Shown: one piece after another, positions 52,169 to 59,056 of the stretch
Position numbering within the stretch: the stretch's first letter is position 1
Layout of the letters: each line of letters begins with the position of its first letter
Sequence record: MN850631.1
Length of the DNA stretch: 64,000 nt
From: Escherichia phage mio
Strand: one strand, 5' to 3'
The notes under the pieces: model-generated
Database searches by the model: none
What the model saw: only the letters and a program-made list of their open reading frames with translations
Told to the model about the DNA's origin: nothing
Made by a program: the position numbers and the translations under genes

Positions 52169-52244
52169 TGGAGAATCCGAAGGGACTCGAACCCTTATAA
52201 ACCTGTTTTGCAGACAGGCACATATCCATTTCTGTCACGGATTC
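52169..52244 (-). tRNA. tRNA-Cys (anticodon GCA)
   Basis: 76 nt, hand-folded cloverleaf; acceptor GAATCCG/CGGATTC, anticodon loop CTGCAAA, T-arm GGGTTCGAGTCCC, encoded CCA. Confidence 0.7.
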
Positions 52245-52248
52245 AAAT

Positions 52249-52341
52249 TGGAGGAAGATACCAGACTTGAACTGGTACACCGATTTCTCAGCTACTGGCA
52301 GTTTAGCAAACTGCTCCCTTACCTTTTAGGGTTAATCTTCC
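52249..52341 (-). tRNA. tRNA-Ser (anticodon GCU), type II
   Basis: 93 nt; acceptor GGAAGAT/ATCTTCC, anticodon loop TTGCTAA, long variable arm, encoded CCA. Confidence 0.6.
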
Positions 52342-52342
52342 A

Positions 52343-53077
52343 TTATTTCTGTAATGCGCTCTTCATTTCTGGTGTTGCAATAGTATCAATCACACCAGTT
52401 TTACAAGCATCATCAAACCAGTCTGGTAAGATACCTGCTAAGAACCCATTGATATTCGTTTTAAGGTACTCTGCAATAAGGGCAGCTTCTTCTTCAATCA
52501 TCTGCACAACTTCATCTGCATAAGCTGTAATCTTTGAGATACCTTCATTAATCTTACTAACAGCCTGATTAGCTAAATCAGAAACAGTATCAAGACCCTT
52601 ATCAATAGCGTCTTGTAAGTCACTTAACACACCATTAACACTATCTAGTGTGCTGTTAATCATGTCAATAGCTTTTTGACCATATTCTGTAGCAACACCC
52701 ATAATACCACTGAATGGTGTACAACCAACTTGTTCTCCTGCTGCACCCATAACATTGGAATAACCCTTTGCTACCTGCATACGTGATGAAAACTCATCAA
52801 TAGATTTTTGACCATAGTCTGTTAGGGTCTTAGTAGTTGCTGTAGTGCTTGTCAGACTTGTTGTAAAGCTGTTTAGAAGGACTGTTGTAAGTCCAGCAGC
52901 AACAAGTTTCTCCTGCATTGTAGGGTCTGTTACAGAGCTAATAGAGCTTACAAGTGATGTAGAGGCAGCTACGGTTCCACCGAGAACTGCTGCACCAGTA
53001 ATAAGTGGGTTAGAAAACCCTTTACCGGTTTTTAAGAGATTAAAAATCTCCTTACCTTGTTCTGTCATCTCTTTCAT
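52343..53077 (-). CDS. hypothetical protein embedded in the tRNA array
   Basis: ORF 52343..53140 trimmed to internal ATG 53077 because the upstream part overlaps tRNA-Phe; Thr/Ser/Ala-rich. Confidence 0.35.
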   Translation of the reverse strand: MKEMTEQGKEIFNLLKTGKGFSNPLITGAAVLGGTVAASTSLVSSISSVTDPTMQEKLVAAGLTTVLLNSFTTSLTSTTATTKTLTDYGQKSIDEFSSRMQVAKGYSNVMGAAGEQVGCTPFSGIMGVATEYGQKAIDMINSTLDSVNGVLSDLQDAIDKGLDTVSDLANQAVSKINEGISKITAYADEVVQMIEEEAALIAEYLKTNINGFLAGILPDWFDDACKTGVIDTIATPEMKSALQK

Positions 53078-53093
53078 TAAGCACCTTTGAAAT

Positions 53094-53169
53094 TGGTAGT
53101 CCAGTGGGATTTGAACCCTCTTCTCATGTTTTTCAGACACGCGCTTTAACCATATAAGCTACTTGGACT
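53094..53169 (-). tRNA. tRNA-Phe (anticodon GAA)
   Basis: 76 nt; anticodon stem CGTGT/ACATG, loop CTGAAAA; T-loop GGTTCAAATCC; CCA encoded. Confidence 0.6.
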
Positions 53170-53175
53170 ATAAAT

Positions 53176-53251
53176 TGGGGTGACCTACGGGAGTCGAACC
53201 CGTATAGACCATGTTCACAGCATGGGTCATTGCCATTTATGATAAGGCCAC
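53176..53251 (-). tRNA. tRNA-His (anticodon GUG)
   Basis: 76 nt; anticodon stem CCATG/CATGG, loop CTGTGAA; T-loop GGTTCGACTCC; CCA encoded. Confidence 0.7.
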
Positions 53252-53282
53252 ATTTAAGGACTCTCGTAAGAACCCTTAGAAG

Positions 53283-53358
53283 TGGCAGCGGCATAAGGAT
53301 TTGAACCTTAATAGGACAGCTTCAGAGACTGCTGCATTGCCAGTTATGCTATACCGCT
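53283..53358 (-). tRNA. tRNA-Gln (anticodon CUG)
   Basis: 76 nt; D-stem GCAT/ATGC, anticodon loop CTCTGAA, T-stem TAAGG/CCTTA; CCA encoded. Confidence 0.55.
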
Positions 53359-53363
53359 AAATT

Positions 53364-53434
53364 TGGTACTCCATATCGGATTCGAACCGATACATAACAC
53401 AGATTTTAAGTCTGGCCTCTCTGCCAATTGGAGT
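53364..53434 (-). tRNA. tRNA, anticodon UAA (Leu-type anticodon on a short class-I scaffold)
   Basis: 71 nt; T-arm ATCGG-TTCGAAT-CCGAT, anticodon loop CTTAAAA, no long variable arm, A at discriminator; atypical. Confidence 0.4.
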
Positions 53435-53444
53435 AATGGAGCAT

Positions 53445-53519
53445 TGGCGGGGGATGTTGGAATTGAACCAACTTCTTCGATTTCAAAGACCGAGGTTTTA
53501 ACCTTGTAAACTAATCCCC
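53445..53519 (-). tRNA. tRNA-Gln (anticodon UUG)
   Basis: 75 nt; anticodon stem TCGGT/ATCGA, loop CTTTGAA; T-arm GTTGG-TTCAATT-CCAAC; acceptor has two mismatches. Confidence 0.5.
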
Positions 53520-53528
53520 TTTAAATCT

Positions 53529-54086
53529 TTACTTTCTCAGTGGATGAATAAAGAATGCCAACATAACTCTTTCCCTTGAGAATGCTCTTTCTTCTGGGAC
53601 AACACTTTTTAGTTTCCATCCAACATAAATTCTCCAGTAAAACTGTTTACCAAAGACTTTAATTGATGGGATAAAAGCGAATAATCCCCAAGCATTACTG
53701 TTCCACATTAGGAGATAACCAGTCTGATTATCTTCAGGGTCAGAACTTACGTTGATATTACCTTTCCACTTAGTAACATCTTTTACATCTCTTCCTAACA
53801 CATGGTAAGAGAAGTTATAAGCTTTGTTTCTCCAGAGCCATCCAACTCTCTGCAAATAGACACCCAGCTTACCAATCTTTCTAATCTTAGCCCATCTTTT
53901 AACGTGGCCTTCGTCACCATCAATCGGGTTGTCGTAGGTTTCCATCCATCTGAATCCAAAAGGTAGGTGTCCTTTCTTCTCACTGTAGAATGGAACTACG
54001 AAAGGTGCTAAGATGACTGCTAGGGTTGCTGCAAATGGCTCTAGTAAAGCTAGGAAAATCCATGAAGCATACTTCAAATATCTCAT
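53529..54086 (-). CDS. hypothetical membrane protein embedded in the tRNA array
   Basis: 185 aa; N-terminal hydrophobic segment WIFLALLEPFAATLAVILAPFVVPF, Trp/Lys/Arg-rich remainder. Confidence 0.35.
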   Translation of the reverse strand: MRYLKYASWIFLALLEPFAATLAVILAPFVVPFYSEKKGHLPFGFRWMETYDNPIDGDEGHVKRWAKIRKIGKLGVYLQRVGWLWRNKAYNFSYHVLGRDVKDVTKWKGNINVSSDPEDNQTGYLLMWNSNAWGLFAFIPSIKVFGKQFYWRIYVGWKLKSVVPEERAFSRERVMLAFFIHPLRK

Positions 54087-54105
54087 CTAAATAGCCTCTT
54101 AAAAT

Positions 54106-54183
54106 TGGTGTTCCAAGACGGATTCGAACCGTCACTAATACAAGGTTTGAGCTTGCATCCTCTGCCAATTGGGATACTGGAAC
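54106..54183 (-). tRNA. tRNA, anticodon CAA (Leu-type anticodon on class-I scaffold)
   Basis: 78 nt; T-arm GACGG-TTCGAAT-CCGTC, anticodon loop CTCAAAC with extended stem; short variable region; atypical. Confidence 0.4.
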
Positions 54184-54184
54184 A

Positions 54185-54259
54185 TGGTACTCACTAAAGG
54201 ACTTGAACCTTTTTCTTCATCTTGTAAGGGTGATGTTTTACCATATAAACTAAGCGAGT
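54185..54259 (-). tRNA. tRNA-Val (anticodon UAC)
   Basis: 75 nt; D-stem GTTT/AAAC, anticodon loop CTTACAA, T-arm AAAGG-TTCAAGT-CCTTT; CCA encoded. Confidence 0.65.
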
Positions 54260-54354
54260 GTGAAAGAGGTCTGAAGTTGTGCCGCTAACTCAACTCCGTG
54301 GAATTTGTTACGGTCTTCAGTTGACACAAGCGGTCTTTCACTTGACCTCTGAAT

Positions 54355-54431
54355 TGGTGCTGCTCACAGGACTCGAACCTGCATTTCCATCCTTACAAGG
54401 GATGTGTAATAGCCAATTATACGAAAGCAGC
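54355..54431 (-). tRNA. tRNA-Thr (anticodon UGU)
   Basis: 77 nt; anticodon stem CATCC/GGATG, loop CTTGTAA; T-loop GGTTCGAGTCC; CCA encoded. Confidence 0.65.
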
Positions 54432-54438
54432 ATTAATT

Positions 54439-54513
54439 TGGAGCATCCAGAGGGAATCGAACCCTCAACCTCAGTTTGGAAGACTGTAATTTTCCCGTTT
54501 AAACTATGGATGC
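54439..54513 (-). tRNA. tRNA-Gly (anticodon UCC)
   Basis: 75 nt; anticodon stem CAGT/ACTG, loop CTTCCAA; T-arm GAGGG-TTCGATT-CCCTC; CCA encoded. Confidence 0.65.
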
Positions 54514-54519
54514 ACTAAT

Positions 54520-54595
54520 TGGTGGAGAAGCAGGGAATTGAACCCTGTACTTAAGTTTGCAAAACTTATGTTTTAACCATGTAAACTACATCCCC
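54520..54595 (-). tRNA. tRNA-Ala (anticodon UGC)
   Basis: 76 nt; anticodon loop TTTGCAA; G3-U70 wobble in acceptor stem (classic Ala identity element); CCA encoded. Confidence 0.65.
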
Positions 54596-54601
54596 GATAT
54601 C

Positions 54602-54677
54602 TGGTACAGGTGGAGGGAATTGAACCCATCGTCTTACTGATTAAGAGTCAGCCGCATAACCATTTTGCTACACCTGC
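54602..54677 (-). tRNA. tRNA-Lys (anticodon CUU)
   Basis: 76 nt; anticodon loop CTCTTAA; near-duplicate scaffold of the UUU Lys tRNA at 56281-56356; CCA encoded. Confidence 0.55.
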
Positions 54678-54684
54678 ATTAATT

Positions 54685-54762
54685 TGGTAGGAGACAAGGG
54701 ATTCGAACCCTCAAACATCTCGTTCTAAGCGAGATAGGTTTACCAATTACCATCAATCTCCC
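54685..54762 (-). tRNA. tRNA, anticodon UAG (Leu-type anticodon on class-I scaffold)
   Basis: 78 nt; anticodon stem TCTCG/CGAGA, loop CTTAGAA; T-loop GGTTCGAATCC; atypical D region. Confidence 0.4.
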
Positions 54763-54843
54763 ATTAAATCTTTTTAGAGAACTTCTAAGAACCTAAGCAA
54801 CAAGGTTCCACAACAAGCTGTAATAACCTTAGAAGCCCTCTAA

Positions 54844-54864
54844 AAAGACCTAAAAAAGGTCTTT
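54844..54864 (-). terminator. terminator-like hairpin inside the tRNA array
   Basis: AAGACC-(T)6A-GGTCTT hairpin; U-run follows on the minus strand; weak. Confidence 0.3.
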
Positions 54865-55018
54865 GCATAGTCTTGTTTAATCCGGTGACTAGAACCTTTG
54901 GAGAGCTTGATATTATCTCTTCTCCGTGACACCTACTAGGTGCTTTATTAGTGTGTACGACAACACACGAGGGATACCAAAGCAACATCCTAATGAAGCT
55001 TGGCTTTAAATCTTATTA

Positions 55019-55108
55019 GGCGGTAAGTAAAGGAGTCGAACCCTCACCGTATCTCTACAGTGGCAACAGTTTTCAAGACTGTTTGGCTGCCATTAGCCGC
55101 TACCTACC
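55019..55108 (-). tRNA. tRNA-Ser (anticodon UGA), type II
   Basis: About 88 nt; anticodon stem ACAGT/ACTGT, loop CTTGAAA; long variable arm; 3' CCA not encoded (CCT). Confidence 0.55.
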
Positions 55109-55121
55109 CCTAATAAGACTT

Positions 55122-55204
55122 TGGCATGGGACGGAGGAGTTGAACCCCTTTGAAACGGTTTTGGAGGCCGTTGCTCATGCCTTAGAGTCTTAACATCGTC
55201 CCAC
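55122..55204 (-). tRNA. tRNA-Trp-like (anticodon CCA), atypical 83 nt
   Basis: Acceptor GTGGGAC/GTCCCAT, anticodon loop CTCCAAA, T-loop GGGTTCAACTCC; enlarged D region. Confidence 0.4.
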
Positions 55205-55341
55205 ACTATAATTCGAAGCTTACCGTATTATCTCAACACTGTAAAGCCCCTTCTCAGATTATTTACATGTTCTGGAAAACATGAGATACAGACCACCTCC
55301 CTACAGGAAGACCCGCTTAGGTCGTCTAAGTAATCTGCTAA

Positions 55342-55689
55342 CTAATACTTTGCATGTCTTACCCTATGGCAATTTGAACATAGCAAAACACATTTGTCAA
55401 GTTCATCTTTTAGCTCTTGAGAGAACTTAAGGCTTTTCCTATGACCAATGTTAAAATCTTTATCTGAAGGATTCAAATGATGGAAGTCATACACTGCTGG
55501 ATGATACTTTTTACCACAATCATGACAAACCCCACCTTTGTACTCAATAGCTGAGAGTTTAAGTGCTCTTTGTCTTTCTATGGTTTGCTCATTAACACAC
55601 TTTTTACAGTATGAATGAGTTCTTCTACCATCTTTCATGTAGAAATCATTTTCATCCTTGCTAAGTTTGCACCTAATACAAGTTTTCAT
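55342..55689 (-). CDS. HNH homing endonuclease
   Basis: ORF 55342..55740 trimmed to ATG 55689 (upstream part overlaps a tRNA); CxxC ... HHLNP ... CSNCHRVRH HNH/zinc motif. Confidence 0.6.
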   Translation of the reverse strand: MKTCIRCKLSKDENDFYMKDGRRTHSYCKKCVNEQTIERQRALKLSAIEYKGGVCHDCGKKYHPAVYDFHHLNPSDKDFNIGHRKSLKFSQELKDELDKCVLLCSNCHRVRHAKY

Positions 55690-55703
55690 GATTTCTCCAA
55701 AAT

Positions 55704-55785
55704 TGGTCGAGGCGGCAGGACTCGAACCCGCATACTCCACTTACTCGGTTAACGGCGGTTTAGAAGACCGCTGAGATACGCCCCG
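55704..55785 (-). tRNA. tRNA-Arg-like (anticodon-type loop CTTCTAA = UCU), structurally anomalous
   Basis: 82 nt; T-arm GCGGG-TTCGAGT-CCTGC and acceptor CGGGGCG/CGCCTCG, but the UCU hairpin sits where the D-arm should be, followed by 23 unassigned nt. Confidence 0.35.
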
Positions 55786-56078
55786 TAATTATCTTTAAAG
55801 ACTCTCTTAGAAAGCCCTTAAAGATGCCCACCTTATTAATCATACCGTGGGCTAGTACGCCAAATTCTTTGATGAGGGATTGGAAGACCTCACTGGTGTT
55901 TAGCCTATCAAGCTACTGCCAGAAAAACATTGTCGTTTGCATTTATTTTAAATTTGCAAAATAGACGCTACGCAACGAAAACTATTCAGAATATGTACAA
56001 CAAATTTCCCCACATTGTGTTACGTCTAACGCTCATGTATTGGTGTTTGAATTATACATATTATGAAGTATTTTAGTT

Positions 56079-56107
56079 ACTATAAAGTGGTCACATCTCA
56101 ATGTCAA
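56079..56107 (-). promoter_or_regulatory. sigma70-like promoter driving minus-strand transcription into the tRNA array
   Basis: Minus-strand TTGACA (rc of 56102-56107), 17-nt spacer, TATAGT (rc of 56079-56084). Confidence 0.5.
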
Positions 56108-56122
56108 CAACTTTATTGAAAT

Positions 56123-56198
56123 TGGTACTGGTAGGTGGAATCGAACCACCGATATTCCCTTATCAGGGGAGTGTTATAACCTTCTTAACTATACCAGC
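56123..56198 (-). tRNA. tRNA-Ile (anticodon GAU)
   Basis: 76 nt; anticodon loop CTGATAA, T-arm GGTGG-TTCGATT-CCACC; CCA encoded. Confidence 0.65.
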
Positions 56199-56199
56199 T

Positions 56200-56276
56200 T
56201 GGAGGTTCAGATGGGAATCGAACCCACATTCATAGGGCTTATGAAACCCCTGCATTACCTTATCTGCGACTGAACC
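56200..56276 (-). tRNA. tRNA-Met (anticodon CAU; three G-C pairs in anticodon stem, initiator-like)
   Basis: 77 nt; anticodon stem GGGGT/GCCCT with loop TTCATAA; T-loop GGGTTCGATTCCC; CCA encoded. Confidence 0.55.
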
Positions 56277-56280
56277 ATAT

Positions 56281-56356
56281 TGGTAGAAGTGGAGGGATTC
56301 GAACCCATCGCCTGTCAGATTAAAAGTCTGCCGCATCACCATTCTGCTACACTTCC
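56281..56356 (-). tRNA. tRNA-Lys (anticodon UUU)
   Basis: 76 nt; anticodon loop CTTTTAA; scaffold nearly identical to the CUU Lys tRNA at 54602-54677. Confidence 0.6.
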
Positions 56357-56361
56357 ATTAA

Positions 56362-56504
56362 ATTATCTTTGTAGATAAGCTACCCAGACTTGCTTAAGGT
56401 CTGTAGCGATGTGCATTGTTGGGTTTAAATCTAGAATTTACCCTTTCACCCTTTGTGGTCGCATACTCACAGGTAAGCTTAATAACTTATCTACAAAGAT
56501 AATT
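56362..56504 (-). ncRNA. structured element with 19-bp perfect terminal inverted repeat (candidate ncRNA or mobile-element remnant)
   Basis: AATTATCTTTGTAGATAAG (56362-56380) and its exact reverse complement CTTATCTACAAAGATAATT (56486-56504) enclose about 105 nt with internal hairpins; no T-loop; strand unknown. Confidence 0.35.
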
Positions 56505-56505
56505 A

Positions 56506-56636
56506 CCAGACCGTTGTTTATCATCTTAAGTGCTACCATTACACCAACTCGACCTCTGCCGAGTGAAGGAATCGAACCTTCGCCTTTTCTTTACCGAGAA
56601 ATAGATTGTTTAAGCTTTGCTGTAAACGGTCTTCTG
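56506..56636 (-). ncRNA. circularly permuted tRNA-like element (candidate Y-RNA-like ncRNA or permuted tRNA gene)
   Basis: In minus-strand sense: variable-arm hairpin TTTCT-CGGTA-AGAAA, T-arm GAAGG-TTCGATT-CCTTC, acceptor-like hairpin ACTCGGC-AGAG-GTCGAGT, D-arm-like GTG-TAATGGTAG-CAC, then TTAAGAT pairing back to ATCT and an 8-bp outer helix AGACCGTT/AACGGTCT. Confidence 0.45.
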
Positions 56637-56810
56637 TAAATTTGTTGAGCCAGACCAAGTTTTAAATTTTTCAAAATTAAATTGGCTTGAAATTTTAAGT
56701 AACTTGCTGTATTTGGTCTTCTGCTCCTTTAAAGAATACTCGTAAGAACTCTTTAAGGGAGGGGCTAAATAGCCCTCTCAAAACATCATTTTGAAATACT
56801 TATTATAATT

Positions 56811-56888
56811 TGGCGGTTACGAAGGGACTCGAACCCTCATCATCTCCCGTGACAGGGGAGTATTTTAACCATATTAAACTACATAACC
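56811..56888 (-). tRNA. tRNA-Asp (anticodon GUC)
   Basis: 78 nt; anticodon stem CTCCC/GGGAG, loop CTGTCAC; T-loop GGGTTCGAGTCCC; CCA encoded. Confidence 0.65.
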
Positions 56889-56894
56889 TTCATT

Positions 56895-56982
56895 TGGTGT
56901 GCCGTGTAGGAGTCGAACCTACCGAGTCTCAATGACAAGGGATTTACAGTCCCCACCGCTACCATCTACGGGATAACGACAC
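56895..56982 (-). tRNA. tRNA-Tyr (anticodon GUA), type II
   Basis: 88 nt; anticodon loop CTGTAAA, long variable arm, T-arm GTAGG-TTCGACT-CCTAC; CCA encoded. Confidence 0.6.
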
Positions 56983-56991
56983 ATTTAAATT

Positions 56992-57068
56992 TGGCGGTTA
57001 GTCAGGGATTCGAACCCTGTGCCATTCGCTTAACAGGCGACCGCACATACCTTATGTGCTTCCTAACC
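56992..57068 (-). tRNA. tRNA-Asn (anticodon GUU)
   Basis: 77 nt; D-stem GCAC/GTGC, anticodon loop CTGTTAA, T-loop GGGTTCGAATCCC; CCA encoded. Confidence 0.65.
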
Positions 57069-57145
57069 TTAATACATTGCCAGACCGTGTTTTTTCTTTT
57101 ATCCGCAAAAAGTAGTTTGTTGCTGCATACAGTCTTCTGCAAAAT

Positions 57146-57222
57146 TGGAGGCGGGTGCAGGAGTCGAACCTGCCGATACCATGCTAATGAGACATGTGAG
57201 ACGCCCTTTCTCTATACCCGCA
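57146..57222 (-). tRNA. tRNA with CAU anticodon (Met or Ile2-type)
   Basis: 77 nt; anticodon stem CATGT/GCATG, loop CTCATTA; 1:72 mismatch in acceptor; T-arm GCAGG-TTCGACT-CCTGC. Confidence 0.5.
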
Positions 57223-57313
57223 ATTCTTAATGACCAGACCAAATCTCTTCTTTGTCCGATTTACCTTCAGATGAATAAGATTAAGTTTGCTGTAATTGGT
57301 CTTCTGTCAAAAC

Positions 57314-57391
57314 TGGCGTTCCAGAAGGGATTTGAACCCTCAGATATCCACTTTGAAAGAGTGGTGACTTTACCATTTTGTCTACTGGAAC
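57314..57391 (-). tRNA. tRNA-Glu (anticodon UUC)
   Basis: 78 nt; anticodon stem CCACT/AGTGG, loop CTTTCAA; T-loop GGGTTCAAATCCC; CCA encoded. Confidence 0.65.
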
Positions 57392-57398
57392 ATTAATT

Positions 57399-57476
57399 TG
57401 GTCTCTGTTGGAGGACTTGAACCTCCGGCCTTACCGCCCCAAACGGAACGCTCTACCAAGCTGAGCTAAACAGAGA
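57399..57476 (-). tRNA. tRNA-Pro (anticodon UGG)
   Basis: About 78 nt; canonical D-arm AGCTCAGCTTGGTAGAGC, anticodon loop TTTGGGG, T-arm GGAGG-TTCAAGT-CCTCC; CCA encoded. Confidence 0.7.
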
Positions 57477-57593
57477 TAAACTTTTCAAACTCTATGTAAC
57501 CACTTTAACATTATTTTTTAGTGATTGTCAAGAACTTTTTTAAAATATTTTTCAGTATCTTAGAAAAGCTCTCATTTCGTTTCTATGTAGAAC

Positions 57594-57622
57594 ATATTAA
57601 AGGGTATTAAACACATTGTCAA
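57594..57622 (-). promoter_or_regulatory. sigma70-like promoter at the head of the tRNA array
   Basis: Minus-strand TTGACA (rc of 57617-57622), 17-nt spacer, TAATAT (rc of 57594-57599); overlaps a 7-bp hairpin GGGTATT/AATACCC just downstream of the Rsr-like gene stop. Confidence 0.5.
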
Positions 57623-57640: not shown

Positions 57641-59056
57641 TTACCAGATATAACGGTCAATCATTACTGCTTTGAGCATTACGCTGATTGGGTCAAACTT
57701 CTCACCACCAAGCAGAGCTTTTAAAGTGGCTGGAGAGAAACCAGATACCATTGCTACACCGTTATCCTTAACAGACACTTCGCAAGTCCCATTACGGTTT
57801 GCTAAGTACCAGAATACCAGTTGTGGCATCTCATATCCAGATTTTTTGTACTTACTCTGAATTGCTTCAAAGTTTGTACGACCATTAGCTCCATCAACCT
57901 GATTGAACTCCATATCAGAGAAGATGATAAGCTTACTTGGCATATCTTTCTGAGTCAAGTTGTTTCTTTTACCTACCTCAAGAATGCGGTCAAAAGCTGC
58001 TTGTAAGTTAGTTGAGCCATATTCAACGTGTCGCATCACCTGACGATGACGGTTTTGTAAATCACCACTCAGTTCGATGAAGTGAGGGTTTGTTGAATAA
58101 ACCATTAACTCGTTCTTAAAGCAACCTGTATTGCGTTCTGCTACATACAATGCAAGTGATACACCAATATCAAGAGCAGTAATTGAACCAAAATTCACCC
58201 AAGACATTGAGCTTGAGACATCAGTCATACACAAGATGTTTTCACCCTCTGCCATCCAGTTTGGTAGTGCTTTCCACTGCTCATTAGCAACATCTGCATT
58301 ACCATGCTTAACAGATTTAATCACATCGTATGGGTAAACAGCACCAGCGTTAATCTTAGACTCACCCTTTGAGAGTGATTCGATGTAAGCTTTGTAACGT
58401 TCTCCATCTTTACGGTTAAAGAGCTTTTGGTAACGTGCAGCAGCGAGTGAAGGAATCTTGCTGTAGTCAATCTTACCAAACTCATTAGCAGAGATTTTTT
58501 GCTCAACCGTATCAGACAGTGCAGATAACAGTGTGCGGTACTCTTTCTCGCTTAAGTTTGCAAACTTACAGAAACGTTTTACAAACTGTTTGTGGCGTGG
58601 TTTTACTCGTGGCAGCCACTTAGCTGCTAAACCTGCTGTTGCAGGGTCTAGCAATGCTGCTTCTAAATGCTTGAAGGCATCTGTCTCAAAACGAGTACCT
58701 ACGAAGATTTTGAAGTCATCAAAACGACCAAGTTCTGCAATCTTATCCATAATGCGAAGAACCTGTGTAGGCTCTAAAACTTTATCTTCAATTGCTTGAA
58801 GCAAGACAGTTCTGAAGGCTTTACGCTCACCCATACCTTCTCGTACATCTCGCATATGCAGTAAAATACGAACTGCGACATCAACATCCTCACGCAAAGC
58901 TTTGTAGAACAGGTCTGGTAAGATTTCTACATTGCTACGGCTTGAACCAGCAGCTTTGTAAAAGTCTACAAGAGCAGACATTGATGAAGTATGGTTTACA
59001 GCACCATTTTCAGTTCGACCTGCATGAAGGTGCGCATGTTTAAATAATTCGCTCAT
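57641..59056 (-). CDS. Ro60/Rsr-like protein (TROVE-like N-terminal region + von Willebrand factor A domain)
   Basis: 471 aa; C-terminal vWA with MIDAS-type CMTDVSSSMSW plus IIFSDMEF, SKYKKS and GFSPATLKAL, which parallel segments I recall from the Ro60 vWA domain (DVSASM, IVFTDNE, REYRKK, GFDTGALDV); N-terminal 260 aa helical; memory-based comparison only. Confidence 0.5.
   Translation of the reverse strand: MSELFKHAHLHAGRTENGAVNHTSSMSALVDFYKAAGSSRSNVEILPDLFYKALREDVDVAVRILLHMRDVREGMGERKAFRTVLLQAIEDKVLEPTQVLRIMDKIAELGRFDDFKIFVGTRFETDAFKHLEAALLDPATAGLAAKWLPRVKPRHKQFVKRFCKFANLSEKEYRTLLSALSDTVEQKISANEFGKIDYSKIPSLAAARYQKLFNRKDGERYKAYIESLSKGESKINAGAVYPYDVIKSVKHGNADVANEQWKALPNWMAEGENILCMTDVSSSMSWVNFGSITALDIGVSLALYVAERNTGCFKNELMVYSTNPHFIELSGDLQNRHRQVMRHVEYGSTNLQAAFDRILEVGKRNNLTQKDMPSKLIIFSDMEFNQVDGANGRTNFEAIQSKYKKSGYEMPQLVFWYLANRNGTCEVSVKDNGVAMVSGFSPATLKALLGGEKFDPISVMLKAVMIDRYIW

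Follow-up and report, generated by a model that had tools for sequence, protein, structure and literature searches.

We analyzed a 64,000-nucleotide (nt) stretch of the genome of Escherichia phage mio (sequence record MN850631.1), the whole of which is referred to below as the window, and the array of transfer RNA (tRNA) genes that it carries. Coordinates are given on the window strand. ARAGORN, run on the whole window, called 24 tRNA genes, all of them on the minus strand within 52169-57475, and made no other calls. Using the Rfam tRNA model RF00005 and a focused scan of the region, we found 22 loci over the RF00005 gathering threshold (at least 29 bits, E-values from 1e-11 to 0.016), and the focused scan scored tRNA-His at 48.9 bits and matched Tyr and Ser(UGA) to the long-arm model of the tRNA clan. 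Genes for tRNA-Arg and tRNA-Trp were not called by ARAGORN anywhere in the window; Rfam and comparative analysis added a tRNA-Arg(UCU) at 55785-55704 and a tRNA-Trp(CCA) at 55204-55122, bringing the array to 26 genes that cover all 20 amino acids. A threshold-level cloverleaf score (RF00005, its clan or ARAGORN) was obtained for 24 of these, and RF00005 recognized neither the Trp-like gene nor an initiator-type tRNA(CAU). The 3' CCA is encoded in 25 out of the 26 genes, the exception being Ser(UGA), which ends in GCC-T. These results agree with the sequence-only reading of this DNA, which had proposed about 26 tRNAs for all 20 amino acids, three leucine anticodons on short class I scaffolds, abnormal D regions in the Trp-like and Arg-like genes and one serine gene without an encoded CCA; its list of anticodons was reproduced throughout by the automated ARAGORN and Rfam calls. 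That reading had also staked its unusual members on automated prediction, and the outcome left it standing: the Leu genes were called with the same anticodons and tRNA scores of 44-47.5 bits, and the Arg-like and Trp-like genes, missed or scored weakly, proved conserved and covarying in comparative data. It did not mention the missing G-1 of tRNA-His, the initiator-type mismatch of one tRNA(CAU) or the non-tRNA RNAs within the array.

From low to high coordinates, the genes called by ARAGORN begin with Cys(GCA) (52169..52244), the type II Ser(GCU) (52249..52341), Phe(GAA) (53094..53169), His(GUG) (53176..53251), Gln(CUG) (53283..53358), Leu(UAA) (53364..53442; Rfam 47.5 bits), Gln(UUG) (53445..53520), Leu(CAA) (54106..54183; 44 bits), Val(UAC) (54185..54259), Thr(UGU) (54355..54431), Gly(UCC) (54439..54513) and Ala(UGC) (54520..54595), the last with a G3.U70 pair. 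They continue with Lys(CUU) (54602..54677), Leu(UAG) (54685..54762; 44.7 bits), the type II Ser(UGA) with the end CCT (55019..55108), Ile(GAU) (56123..56198; 63.4 bits), a tRNA(CAU) (56200..56276), Lys(UUU) (56281..56356), Asp(GUC) (56811..56888; 64 bits), the type II Tyr(GUA) with a long variable arm (56895..56982; tRNA clan, 29.6 bits), Asn(GUU) (56992..57068; 48 bits), a second tRNA(CAU) (57146..57222; no Rfam match), Glu(UUC) (57314..57391; 60.4 bits) and Pro(UGG) (57399..57475; 57.7 bits). All but the second tRNA(CAU) were also found by Rfam. The His tRNA has C73 and a T at position -1, so that G-1 is not encoded. The tRNA(CAU) at 57222-57146 has the 1:72 mismatch of an initiator (U1xC72, with U73), is 71% identical to the annotated tRNA-fMet of phage T5 and shares its acceptor UGCGGGU/ACCCGC. 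Bacterial initiator tRNAs have three consecutive G:C pairs at the base of the anticodon stem; these are absent from this tRNA, whose stem reads CAUGU/GCAUG. The other tRNA(CAU) has G1:C72 and U73 and is probably an elongator tRNA-Met; AUA makes up just 3% of Ile codons in the open reading frames (ORFs) of the window.

The three tRNA-Leu genes are 79, 78 and 78 nt long including CCA (UAA, CAA and UAG, respectively), which leaves a variable region of about 6-7 nt because the standard parts of a tRNA use 7+2+17+1+17+17+7+1 nt. By comparison, E. coli leuZ is 87 nt long with a variable region of about 15 nt, and the variable regions of leuZ, leuX and leuW span 13-15 nt. In the alignment the phage variable region is 8-10 nt shorter than in these three E. 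coli genes, giving a tRNA of class I shape, and none of the three has the stemmed variable arm, 10 nt or longer, that marks a type II tRNA-Leu. In the phage genes the D loop is (C)AAUUGGCAGA, to be compared with AAUYGGUAGA in E. coli, and these genes share with leuZ, leuX and leuW a D loop AAUUGG(C/U)AGA on a 3-bp D stem, U8, A73 and a U before the T stem. This U, directly 5' of the T stem, is the partner of A15 (A15..U48). Alignment and ARAGORN structures place the identity set of leucyl-tRNA synthetase (LeuRS), namely A73, A15-U48 and G18G19/A20a, in the Leu genes, and G3.U70 occurs in none of the three. According to a 2023 review (PMC9976931), E. coli LeuRS reads A73, A15-U48, G18G19, A20a and contacts of the D loop with the T loop, and it still charges variants without the variable arm; the long arm is described there as present in tRNA-Leu everywhere but in animal mitochondria. 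Because the identity elements are kept and the arm is dispensable (PMC9976931), charging by LeuRS is most likely.

Across about 200 genomes the Leu genes are conserved at 99-100%. In Wc4-1, a Pectobacterium phage placed distantly within the Ounavirinae, tRNA-Leu(UAA) is an 87-nt type II tRNA, yet tRNA-Leu(UAG) is 78 nt long. Judged from these sequences, the short-arm trait is derived and the long variable arm was lost. Several pairs in the anticodon stem of Leu(UAG) differ among the window, the Mooglevirus phage Mordin and Wc4-1, and pairing is held save for one U.U. Among all loci compared, ARAGORN found 22 distinct short tRNA-Leu sequences (76-79 nt) and 21 long ones (83-88 nt), some of the short ones on unrelated contigs of 146-247 kb. 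The Ser and Tyr tRNAs of these loci are all long, and long arms are likewise retained in Tyr and both Ser tRNAs of the window. A tRNA-Leu of class I shape, which here and in other phage contigs would serve a bacterial translation system, provides a natural test of the in vitro finding that E. coli LeuRS ignores the arm.

The Arg-like gene (55704..55785, minus strand) is a non-canonical tRNA-Arg(UCU) of 82 nt that scored 31.7 bits with the Rfam tRNA model. Its sequence can be divided as CGGGGCG-UAUCUCA-GCGGU-CUUCUAA-ACCGC-CGUUAA-CCG-AGUAAG-UGG-AGUAU-GCGGG-UUCGAGU-CCUGC-CGCCUCG-A-CCA, with a 7-bp acceptor stem, a linker (UAUCUCA) that replaces the D arm, and then an anticodon arm. A conserved extra region of 23 nt, containing a 3-bp stem, leads to the T arm, A73 and CCA. 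Folding by minimum free energy returns this structure too, and the parts expected of a tRNA-Arg(UCU) are in place: a 5-bp stem topped by a 7-nt loop with UCU, a T arm, and an acceptor with N73 and CCA. Similar sequences, with 83-90% identity, occur in unrelated phages including jumbo phage 121Q and Sugarland-like and rV5-like phages, where GenBank labels them tRNA-Leu(taa), tRNA-OTHER or Undet, or leaves them unlabelled. With the phage records and three pattern scans of IMG/VR combined, the family comprises 36 distinct sequences with a common 82-nt plan. Standard pairs fill 99.4% of the paired cells in this family, compared with 71% in shuffles; there are 194 two-sided pair changes, none of 500 shuffles was as good, and slid controls dropped to 33-50% paired. 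Covariation extends to 6 of the 7 acceptor pairs and all 5 pairs of the anticodon stem, and the rare changes in the short stem keep its pairing (C:G to U.G, G.U to G:C). The anticodon is UCU in 35 members and CCU in the remaining one. The linker G7-UAUCUCA and the segment CRUUAAYCGAGUAANUGGAGUAU are nearly invariant, although this invariance is partly imposed by the search patterns. A canonical tRNA-Arg(UCU) sits at the same place in Mooglevirus (Mordin and ESh19) and in Wc4-1, and the anticodon arm of the Mooglevirus gene, ACGGU-CUUCUAA-ACCGU, is identical to that of many members of the family. The alignment therefore identifies the Arg-like gene as one of a widespread phage tRNA family, and as neither a pseudogene nor the tRNA-like domain of a transfer-messenger RNA (tmRNA). 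Strongly constrained and mis-annotated, this family offers a defined substrate with which to study the acceptance of a rewired tRNA core by arginyl-tRNA synthetase (ArgRS), EF-Tu and the ribosome.

The Trp-like gene (55122..55204, minus strand; 83 nt) was recognized by comparative alignment and folding. It is present in 235 Ounavirinae records, in most of them unannotated, and we derived its structure with RNAalifold from five versions. The consensus has an 8-bp acceptor stem, a 4-bp T stem, G73 and a CCA end, together with an invariant 9-nt linker, AUGUUAAGA. A displaced D arm consists of a covarying 3-bp stem (CUC/GAG, CAC/GUG) and an 8-nt loop with GG, and the 5-bp anticodon stem covaries fully (AACGG/CCGUU, GUAAG/CUUAC, GUAGG/CCUAC) beneath a 9-nt loop, C(C/U)UCCAA(A/C)(A/C). 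Compensatory changes in the acceptor, D and anticodon stems run from Felixounavirus to Wc4-1. In E. coli the identity of tRNA-Trp lies in the CCA anticodon, G73 and A1-U72. The anticodon and G73 are found in all versions of the phage gene, and A1:U72 in most relatives, with G1.U72 in the window.

Overall, these comparisons make it likely (with a probability of roughly 0.8) that the 26-gene array supplements or replaces host tRNAs and that its five odd members, the three Leu, the Arg and the Trp genes, are functional and not decaying. The genes would be transcribed from sigma-70-type promoters, their transcripts matured by host RNase P and 3' processing enzymes, and the tRNAs charged by host aminoacyl-tRNA synthetases. 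They could then top up the decoding of heavily used A/T-rich phage codons; in 60 ORFs of the window, UUA and CUA account for 26% and 12% of Leu codons and AGA for 42% of Arg codons. They may also sustain translation when host tRNAs are depleted or cut by anti-phage nucleases. Phage tRNAs rescue infection from tRNA-cleaving defences in T5-type phages (PMC10264068, PMC11464382, PMC11555353), and Septu cuts the variable loop of tRNA-Tyr. That the changed shapes serve to escape shape-reading nucleases is speculation, and the odd tRNAs allow evasion of tRNA-cleaving defences to be tested. A tRNA cluster as such is ordinary and already published. The class I tRNA-Leu, the D-armless tRNA-Arg(UCU) and the tRNA-Trp with 8-bp and 4-bp stems are conserved tRNA variants, and in the searchable literature we found no description of any of them, including class I tRNA-Leu or D-armless tRNA-Arg from other phages.

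Several observations weigh against a decoding role for every member of the array. The D stem of tRNA-Leu(UAG) is weak. E. coli ArgRS uses A20 in the D loop, and the Arg-like tRNA has the linker UAUCUCA with no D arm and no evident equivalent of A20. Similarly, E. coli HisRS needs the G-1 that the phage tRNA-His lacks. The non-canonical form of tRNA-Arg is not required, since Mooglevirus and Wc4-1 carry a canonical tRNA-Arg(UCU) in its place. Finally, any benefit would be conditional, because Bas63, a Felixounavirus, can mostly do without its tRNAs on four laboratory strains.

Directly upstream of the array lies a gene for a protein with the Ro60 fold (TROVE and von Willebrand factor A domains; 57641..59056, minus strand). 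Its AlphaFold2 model has a mean confidence (pLDDT) of 88, and the top 12 Foldseek matches in the PDB were all Ro60 proteins, with E-values down to 8.5e-9 and including the Ro60 of a Thermus phage. The product also matches DUF2828 and DUF7788. Sequence searches of the protein against PDB sequences and NCBIfam returned nothing, and it was the fold search alone that succeeded. In the Bas63 study, gp130 was found to resemble Ro60 and to counter the 'ppl' defence, and its authors suggested that some annotated 'tRNAs' are Y RNAs. Four paralogous units lie on the minus strand within the array, at 57234..57306, 57080..57139, 56650..56723 and 56506..56636. All four follow a common plan: an outer helix of 4 bp, which covaries, an internal loop AGA/G, AGACCNN/NNGGUCU as the inner helix, and the box UACAGCAA. 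In the fourth there is a circularly permuted tRNA-like module composed of a V arm, a T arm, a closed acceptor-like hairpin with covariation among relatives, and a D arm. As with YrlA-type Y RNAs (Chen et al. 2014, PMC4201824), the units and the Ro60-fold gene share a strand and are within 4 kb of each other; a long terminal stem interrupted by an internal loop is also present, and the fourth unit has T and D arms with a closed acceptor-like hairpin. They differ from YrlA in that the Rfam YrlA model has no match at the four loci and the stem motif is (N)CAGAAGACC, not GNCGAAN0-1G. From sequence and fold, we regard the four units as candidate YrlA-type Y RNAs for the Ro60-like protein.

The position of the Ro60-fold gene, the proposal of the Bas63 authors, the permuted tRNA-like module on a Y-RNA-type stem inside the array and the annotated tRNA-like stable RNAs in the array of phage T5 could all be taken to mean that, for some odd tRNA-like genes, the main task is not decoding but serving as a decoy or partner of RNA-binding proteins, such as the Ro60-like protein or defence nucleases. 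We consider this unlikely, since the Y-RNA-like units are loci separate from the 26 tRNAs, and the Arg, Trp and Leu genes have free CCA acceptor ends and proper anticodon loops.

Between tRNA-Ile and the Arg-like gene lies a further structured RNA (55787..56072, minus strand) with a likeness to the mRNA-like portion of tmRNA. Its resume codon, GCA at 55940, stands in the context AAAAUAAAU-GCA (AAUAAAU-GCA) and opens the tag ANDNVFLAVA (55940-55911); the stop codon (55910-55908) lies within a hairpin, and two pseudoknots follow downstream. The module is present in 771 phage records, from Kuttervirus, N4-like phages and Klebsiella siphoviruses to contigs resembling lambdoid prophages. Across 96 distinct sequences, each helix is 93-100% paired with compensatory changes, and the tags vary conservatively as AN(D/E)xx(F/Y/V/I)L(A/M/I)(V/A)A, with 15 variants seen. 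An invariant GUUUUCG, 36-54 nt upstream, is complementary to CGAAAAC in the tag codons of host ssrA. The module's resume codon, 10-codon tag of the type AN(D/E)..L(A/M)(V/A)A, hairpin stop and pseudoknots are features in common with one-piece and permuted two-piece tmRNA (ssrA). In contrast to tmRNA, no linked alanine-accepting tRNA-like domain was detected by ARAGORN or Rfam beside the tag RNA in the window, in KpV2811, Det7 or Pollock, or in 128 out of 130 loci overall. The two remaining ARAGORN calls are artefactual joins; in Mordin, the called 'permuted tmRNA' is put together from distant, unrelated pieces, its 5' domain lying inside tRNA-Lys. A recent copy of host ssrA was considered as the source of the tag RNA and dropped, blastn against E. 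coli ssrA giving short matches only. We found no phage tmRNA-like tag RNA described in the searchable literature.

Two further settings of the tag-RNA module were seen among the compared loci. On three provirus-like IMG/VR contigs (L129, L119 and L125), in settings that resemble lambdoid prophages, the module stands between the complementary boxes GGTAAG(A/G)GCATT and AGTGCTCTTTCC, 3' of a terminator-like hairpin, and the same boxes also flank small inserts that contain a T arm, which suggests a modular array of structured RNAs. In Salmonella phage Det7 (locus L006), the module lies in 1.4 kb without annotated genes (797-2232); about 170 nt upstream of it is a tRNA-like element of 67 nt that has acceptor, D and T arms and lacks an anticodon arm.

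The proximity of the tag RNA and the G3.U70 pair of the window copy prompted the idea that the Arg-like element partners the upstream tag RNA as a tRNA-like domain of tmRNA type, either alanine-charged or serving as a sponge for SmpB. The Rfam tmRNA model does match the Arg-like gene (22 bits, E = 5e-7), and there is a precedent in mycobacteriophage DS6A, whose 'tmRNA' has the tRNA-like domain only; such RNAs inhibit tmRNA. However, the Rfam match is due to the GGGGC... acceptor and the T arm alone, and alanine identity is excluded for the family because G3.U70 occurs in just 6 of its 36 members, the others having G:C, A:U, C:G or U:A. A full anticodon arm with UCU (or CCU) is always present, the element is self-contained with no helix 2 to join it to a partner, the tag RNA does not adjoin it in the phages of most family members, and in Mooglevirus the slot after the tag RNA is filled by a canonical tRNA-Arg(UCU). 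With the G.U pair not conserved and the UCU arm invariant among the 36 members, we dropped the Arg-like gene as an alanine-identity domain and regard a tmRNA-type partner of any kind as quite improbable.

The whole region is readily placed among known phages. Over 5.6 kb it is 95-97% identical, across 99-100% of its length, to SP22, Felix O1, wV8 and VpaE1; the same range of identity extends to about 200 other Felixounavirus records, a total of 211 records span at least 80% of the region, and the order of tRNAs and other features is the same in Felix O1 and the other relatives compared. By its sequence, then, the phage is a Felixounavirus, one of the Felix O1-like myoviruses of E. coli and Salmonella, and this is its tRNA array. 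As an array it is not new: the cluster of Felix O1 was described by Whichard et al. 2010 (PMC3185647), who listed 22 tRNAs found by tRNAscan, with the same anticodons, and offered a codon-usage rationale. Felixounavirus genomes had 17-23 tRNAs each in a 2021 comparison. Three protein genes are interspersed on the minus strand of the window: an HNH homing-endonuclease gene directly 3' of the Arg-like tRNA (55342..55692; PHROG 2255, E = 1e-39, with a weak Pfam HNH match) and genes with domain matches to DUF7338 (53529..54086) and DUF7217 (52343..53077). A canonical tRNA-Arg(ACG) of Felix O1 and VpaE1 (locus L001, 3607-3682) sits between the DUF7338 gene and Leu(CAA); in the window just 19 nt (54087-54105) separate these two genes and hold no tRNA-Arg(ACG). 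Because this tRNA and two HNH genes differ among close relatives, gain and loss inside the array must be rapid.

Three candidate sigma-70-like promoters, called from consensus matches only, lie on the minus strand: TTGACA-17-TAATAT at 57594..57622 (10/12), upstream of the array, TTGACA-18-TAAAGT with a TG at 57502..57531, just 5' of tRNA-Pro, and TTGACA-17-TATAGT at 56079..56107 (11/12), before the tmRNA-like RNA. A repeated hairpin, UUUAAGGG(C/U)U(U)CU(A/U)A(C)GAGAGUC(C/U)UUAAA, was spotted by eye between tRNA sub-clusters on the minus strand at about 55815-55788, 53275-53252, 56775-56740 and 54850-54770, and may be a processing or termination signal.

The turnover of genes within the array bears on whether the short Leu, Arg-like and Trp-like genes might be inert, decaying pseudogenes left by deletions and homing-endonuclease traffic. 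The absence of the Felix O1 tRNA-Arg(ACG) and of two Felix O1 HNH genes would fit this, as would the failure of ARAGORN on the Arg-like and Trp-like genes, their low or absent Rfam scores and the 'pseudo' flags given to His and Tyr in Felix O1 (PMC3185647). Decay is highly unlikely to have left what the relatives show, namely 36 distinct Arg family sequences that are spread over unrelated groups of phages, pair almost perfectly and covary massively, Trp-like pairing kept by compensatory changes from Felixounavirus to Wc4-1, near-identity of the Leu genes in some 200 genomes, and a CCA encoded in Leu, Arg-like and Trp-like genes alike. The Arg-like and Trp-like loci are not pseudogenes; the comparative data describe conserved, covarying genes. 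That the short 'Leu' tRNAs are instead charged with another amino acid, so that UUR and CUN codons are partly recoded, deserves very little credence given the Leu D loop, A73 and A15..U48 and the absence of G3.U70 from all three, an E. coli LeuRS that does not need the arm (PMC9976931), host tRNA-Leu still reading the same codons, and structural proteins of Felix O1 that matched standard translation by mass spectrometry (PMC3185647).

With functional tRNAs as the preferred reading, a broader idea can be raised tentatively, with the odds against it: that the array is a toolkit of rewired RNAs for seizing host translation and RNA surveillance. It would comprise tRNAs reshaped (armless Arg, class I Leu, Trp with 8-bp and 4-bp stems) so as to evade tRNA-targeting immune nucleases and yet be charged by host synthetases, Ro60/Y-RNA particles, and a free-standing tag RNA whose invariant 5' GUUUUCG could pair with the tag codons of host tmRNA to redirect or block trans-translation.

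Among known systems, the array of Felix O1 is the closest, with the same order, anticodons and interspersed HNH and hypothetical genes; the window differs in having neither tRNA-Arg(ACG) nor the two HNH genes ORF44 and ORF47. In the Felix O1 paper (PMC3185647), Trp and the UCU Arg are unlisted and the short Leu tRNAs are not remarked on. Phage T5 is similar in its near-complete, one-strand tRNA set with interspersed HNH homing endonucleases, in tRNAs missed by the predictor (ARAGORN misses Gly, Trp and Ile2, the tRNA-Trp being 71 nt long), in an initiator tRNA whose mismatched acceptor is likewise UGCGGGU and in its annotated tRNA-like stable RNAs. T5 differs in having a canonical tRNA-Arg(UCU) and a tRNA-Leu(UAG) of the normal type II form, 85 nt long. 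It was rejected as a source of homologues: compared with the tag RNA, the Y-like units and the Arg-like and Trp-like genes, it gave T-arm matches only. The Arg family recalls D-armless mitochondrial tRNAs, of which mammalian mitochondrial tRNA-Ser(AGY) is an example, in that the D stem-loop is absent from both, a likeness that does not imply homology, and its stem-containing extra region recalls class II tRNAs. Unlike the mitochondrial tRNAs, the Arg family belongs to phages of Enterobacteria and to environmental phage contigs, and combines an invariant linker and extra region with a normal T arm and an encoded CCA.

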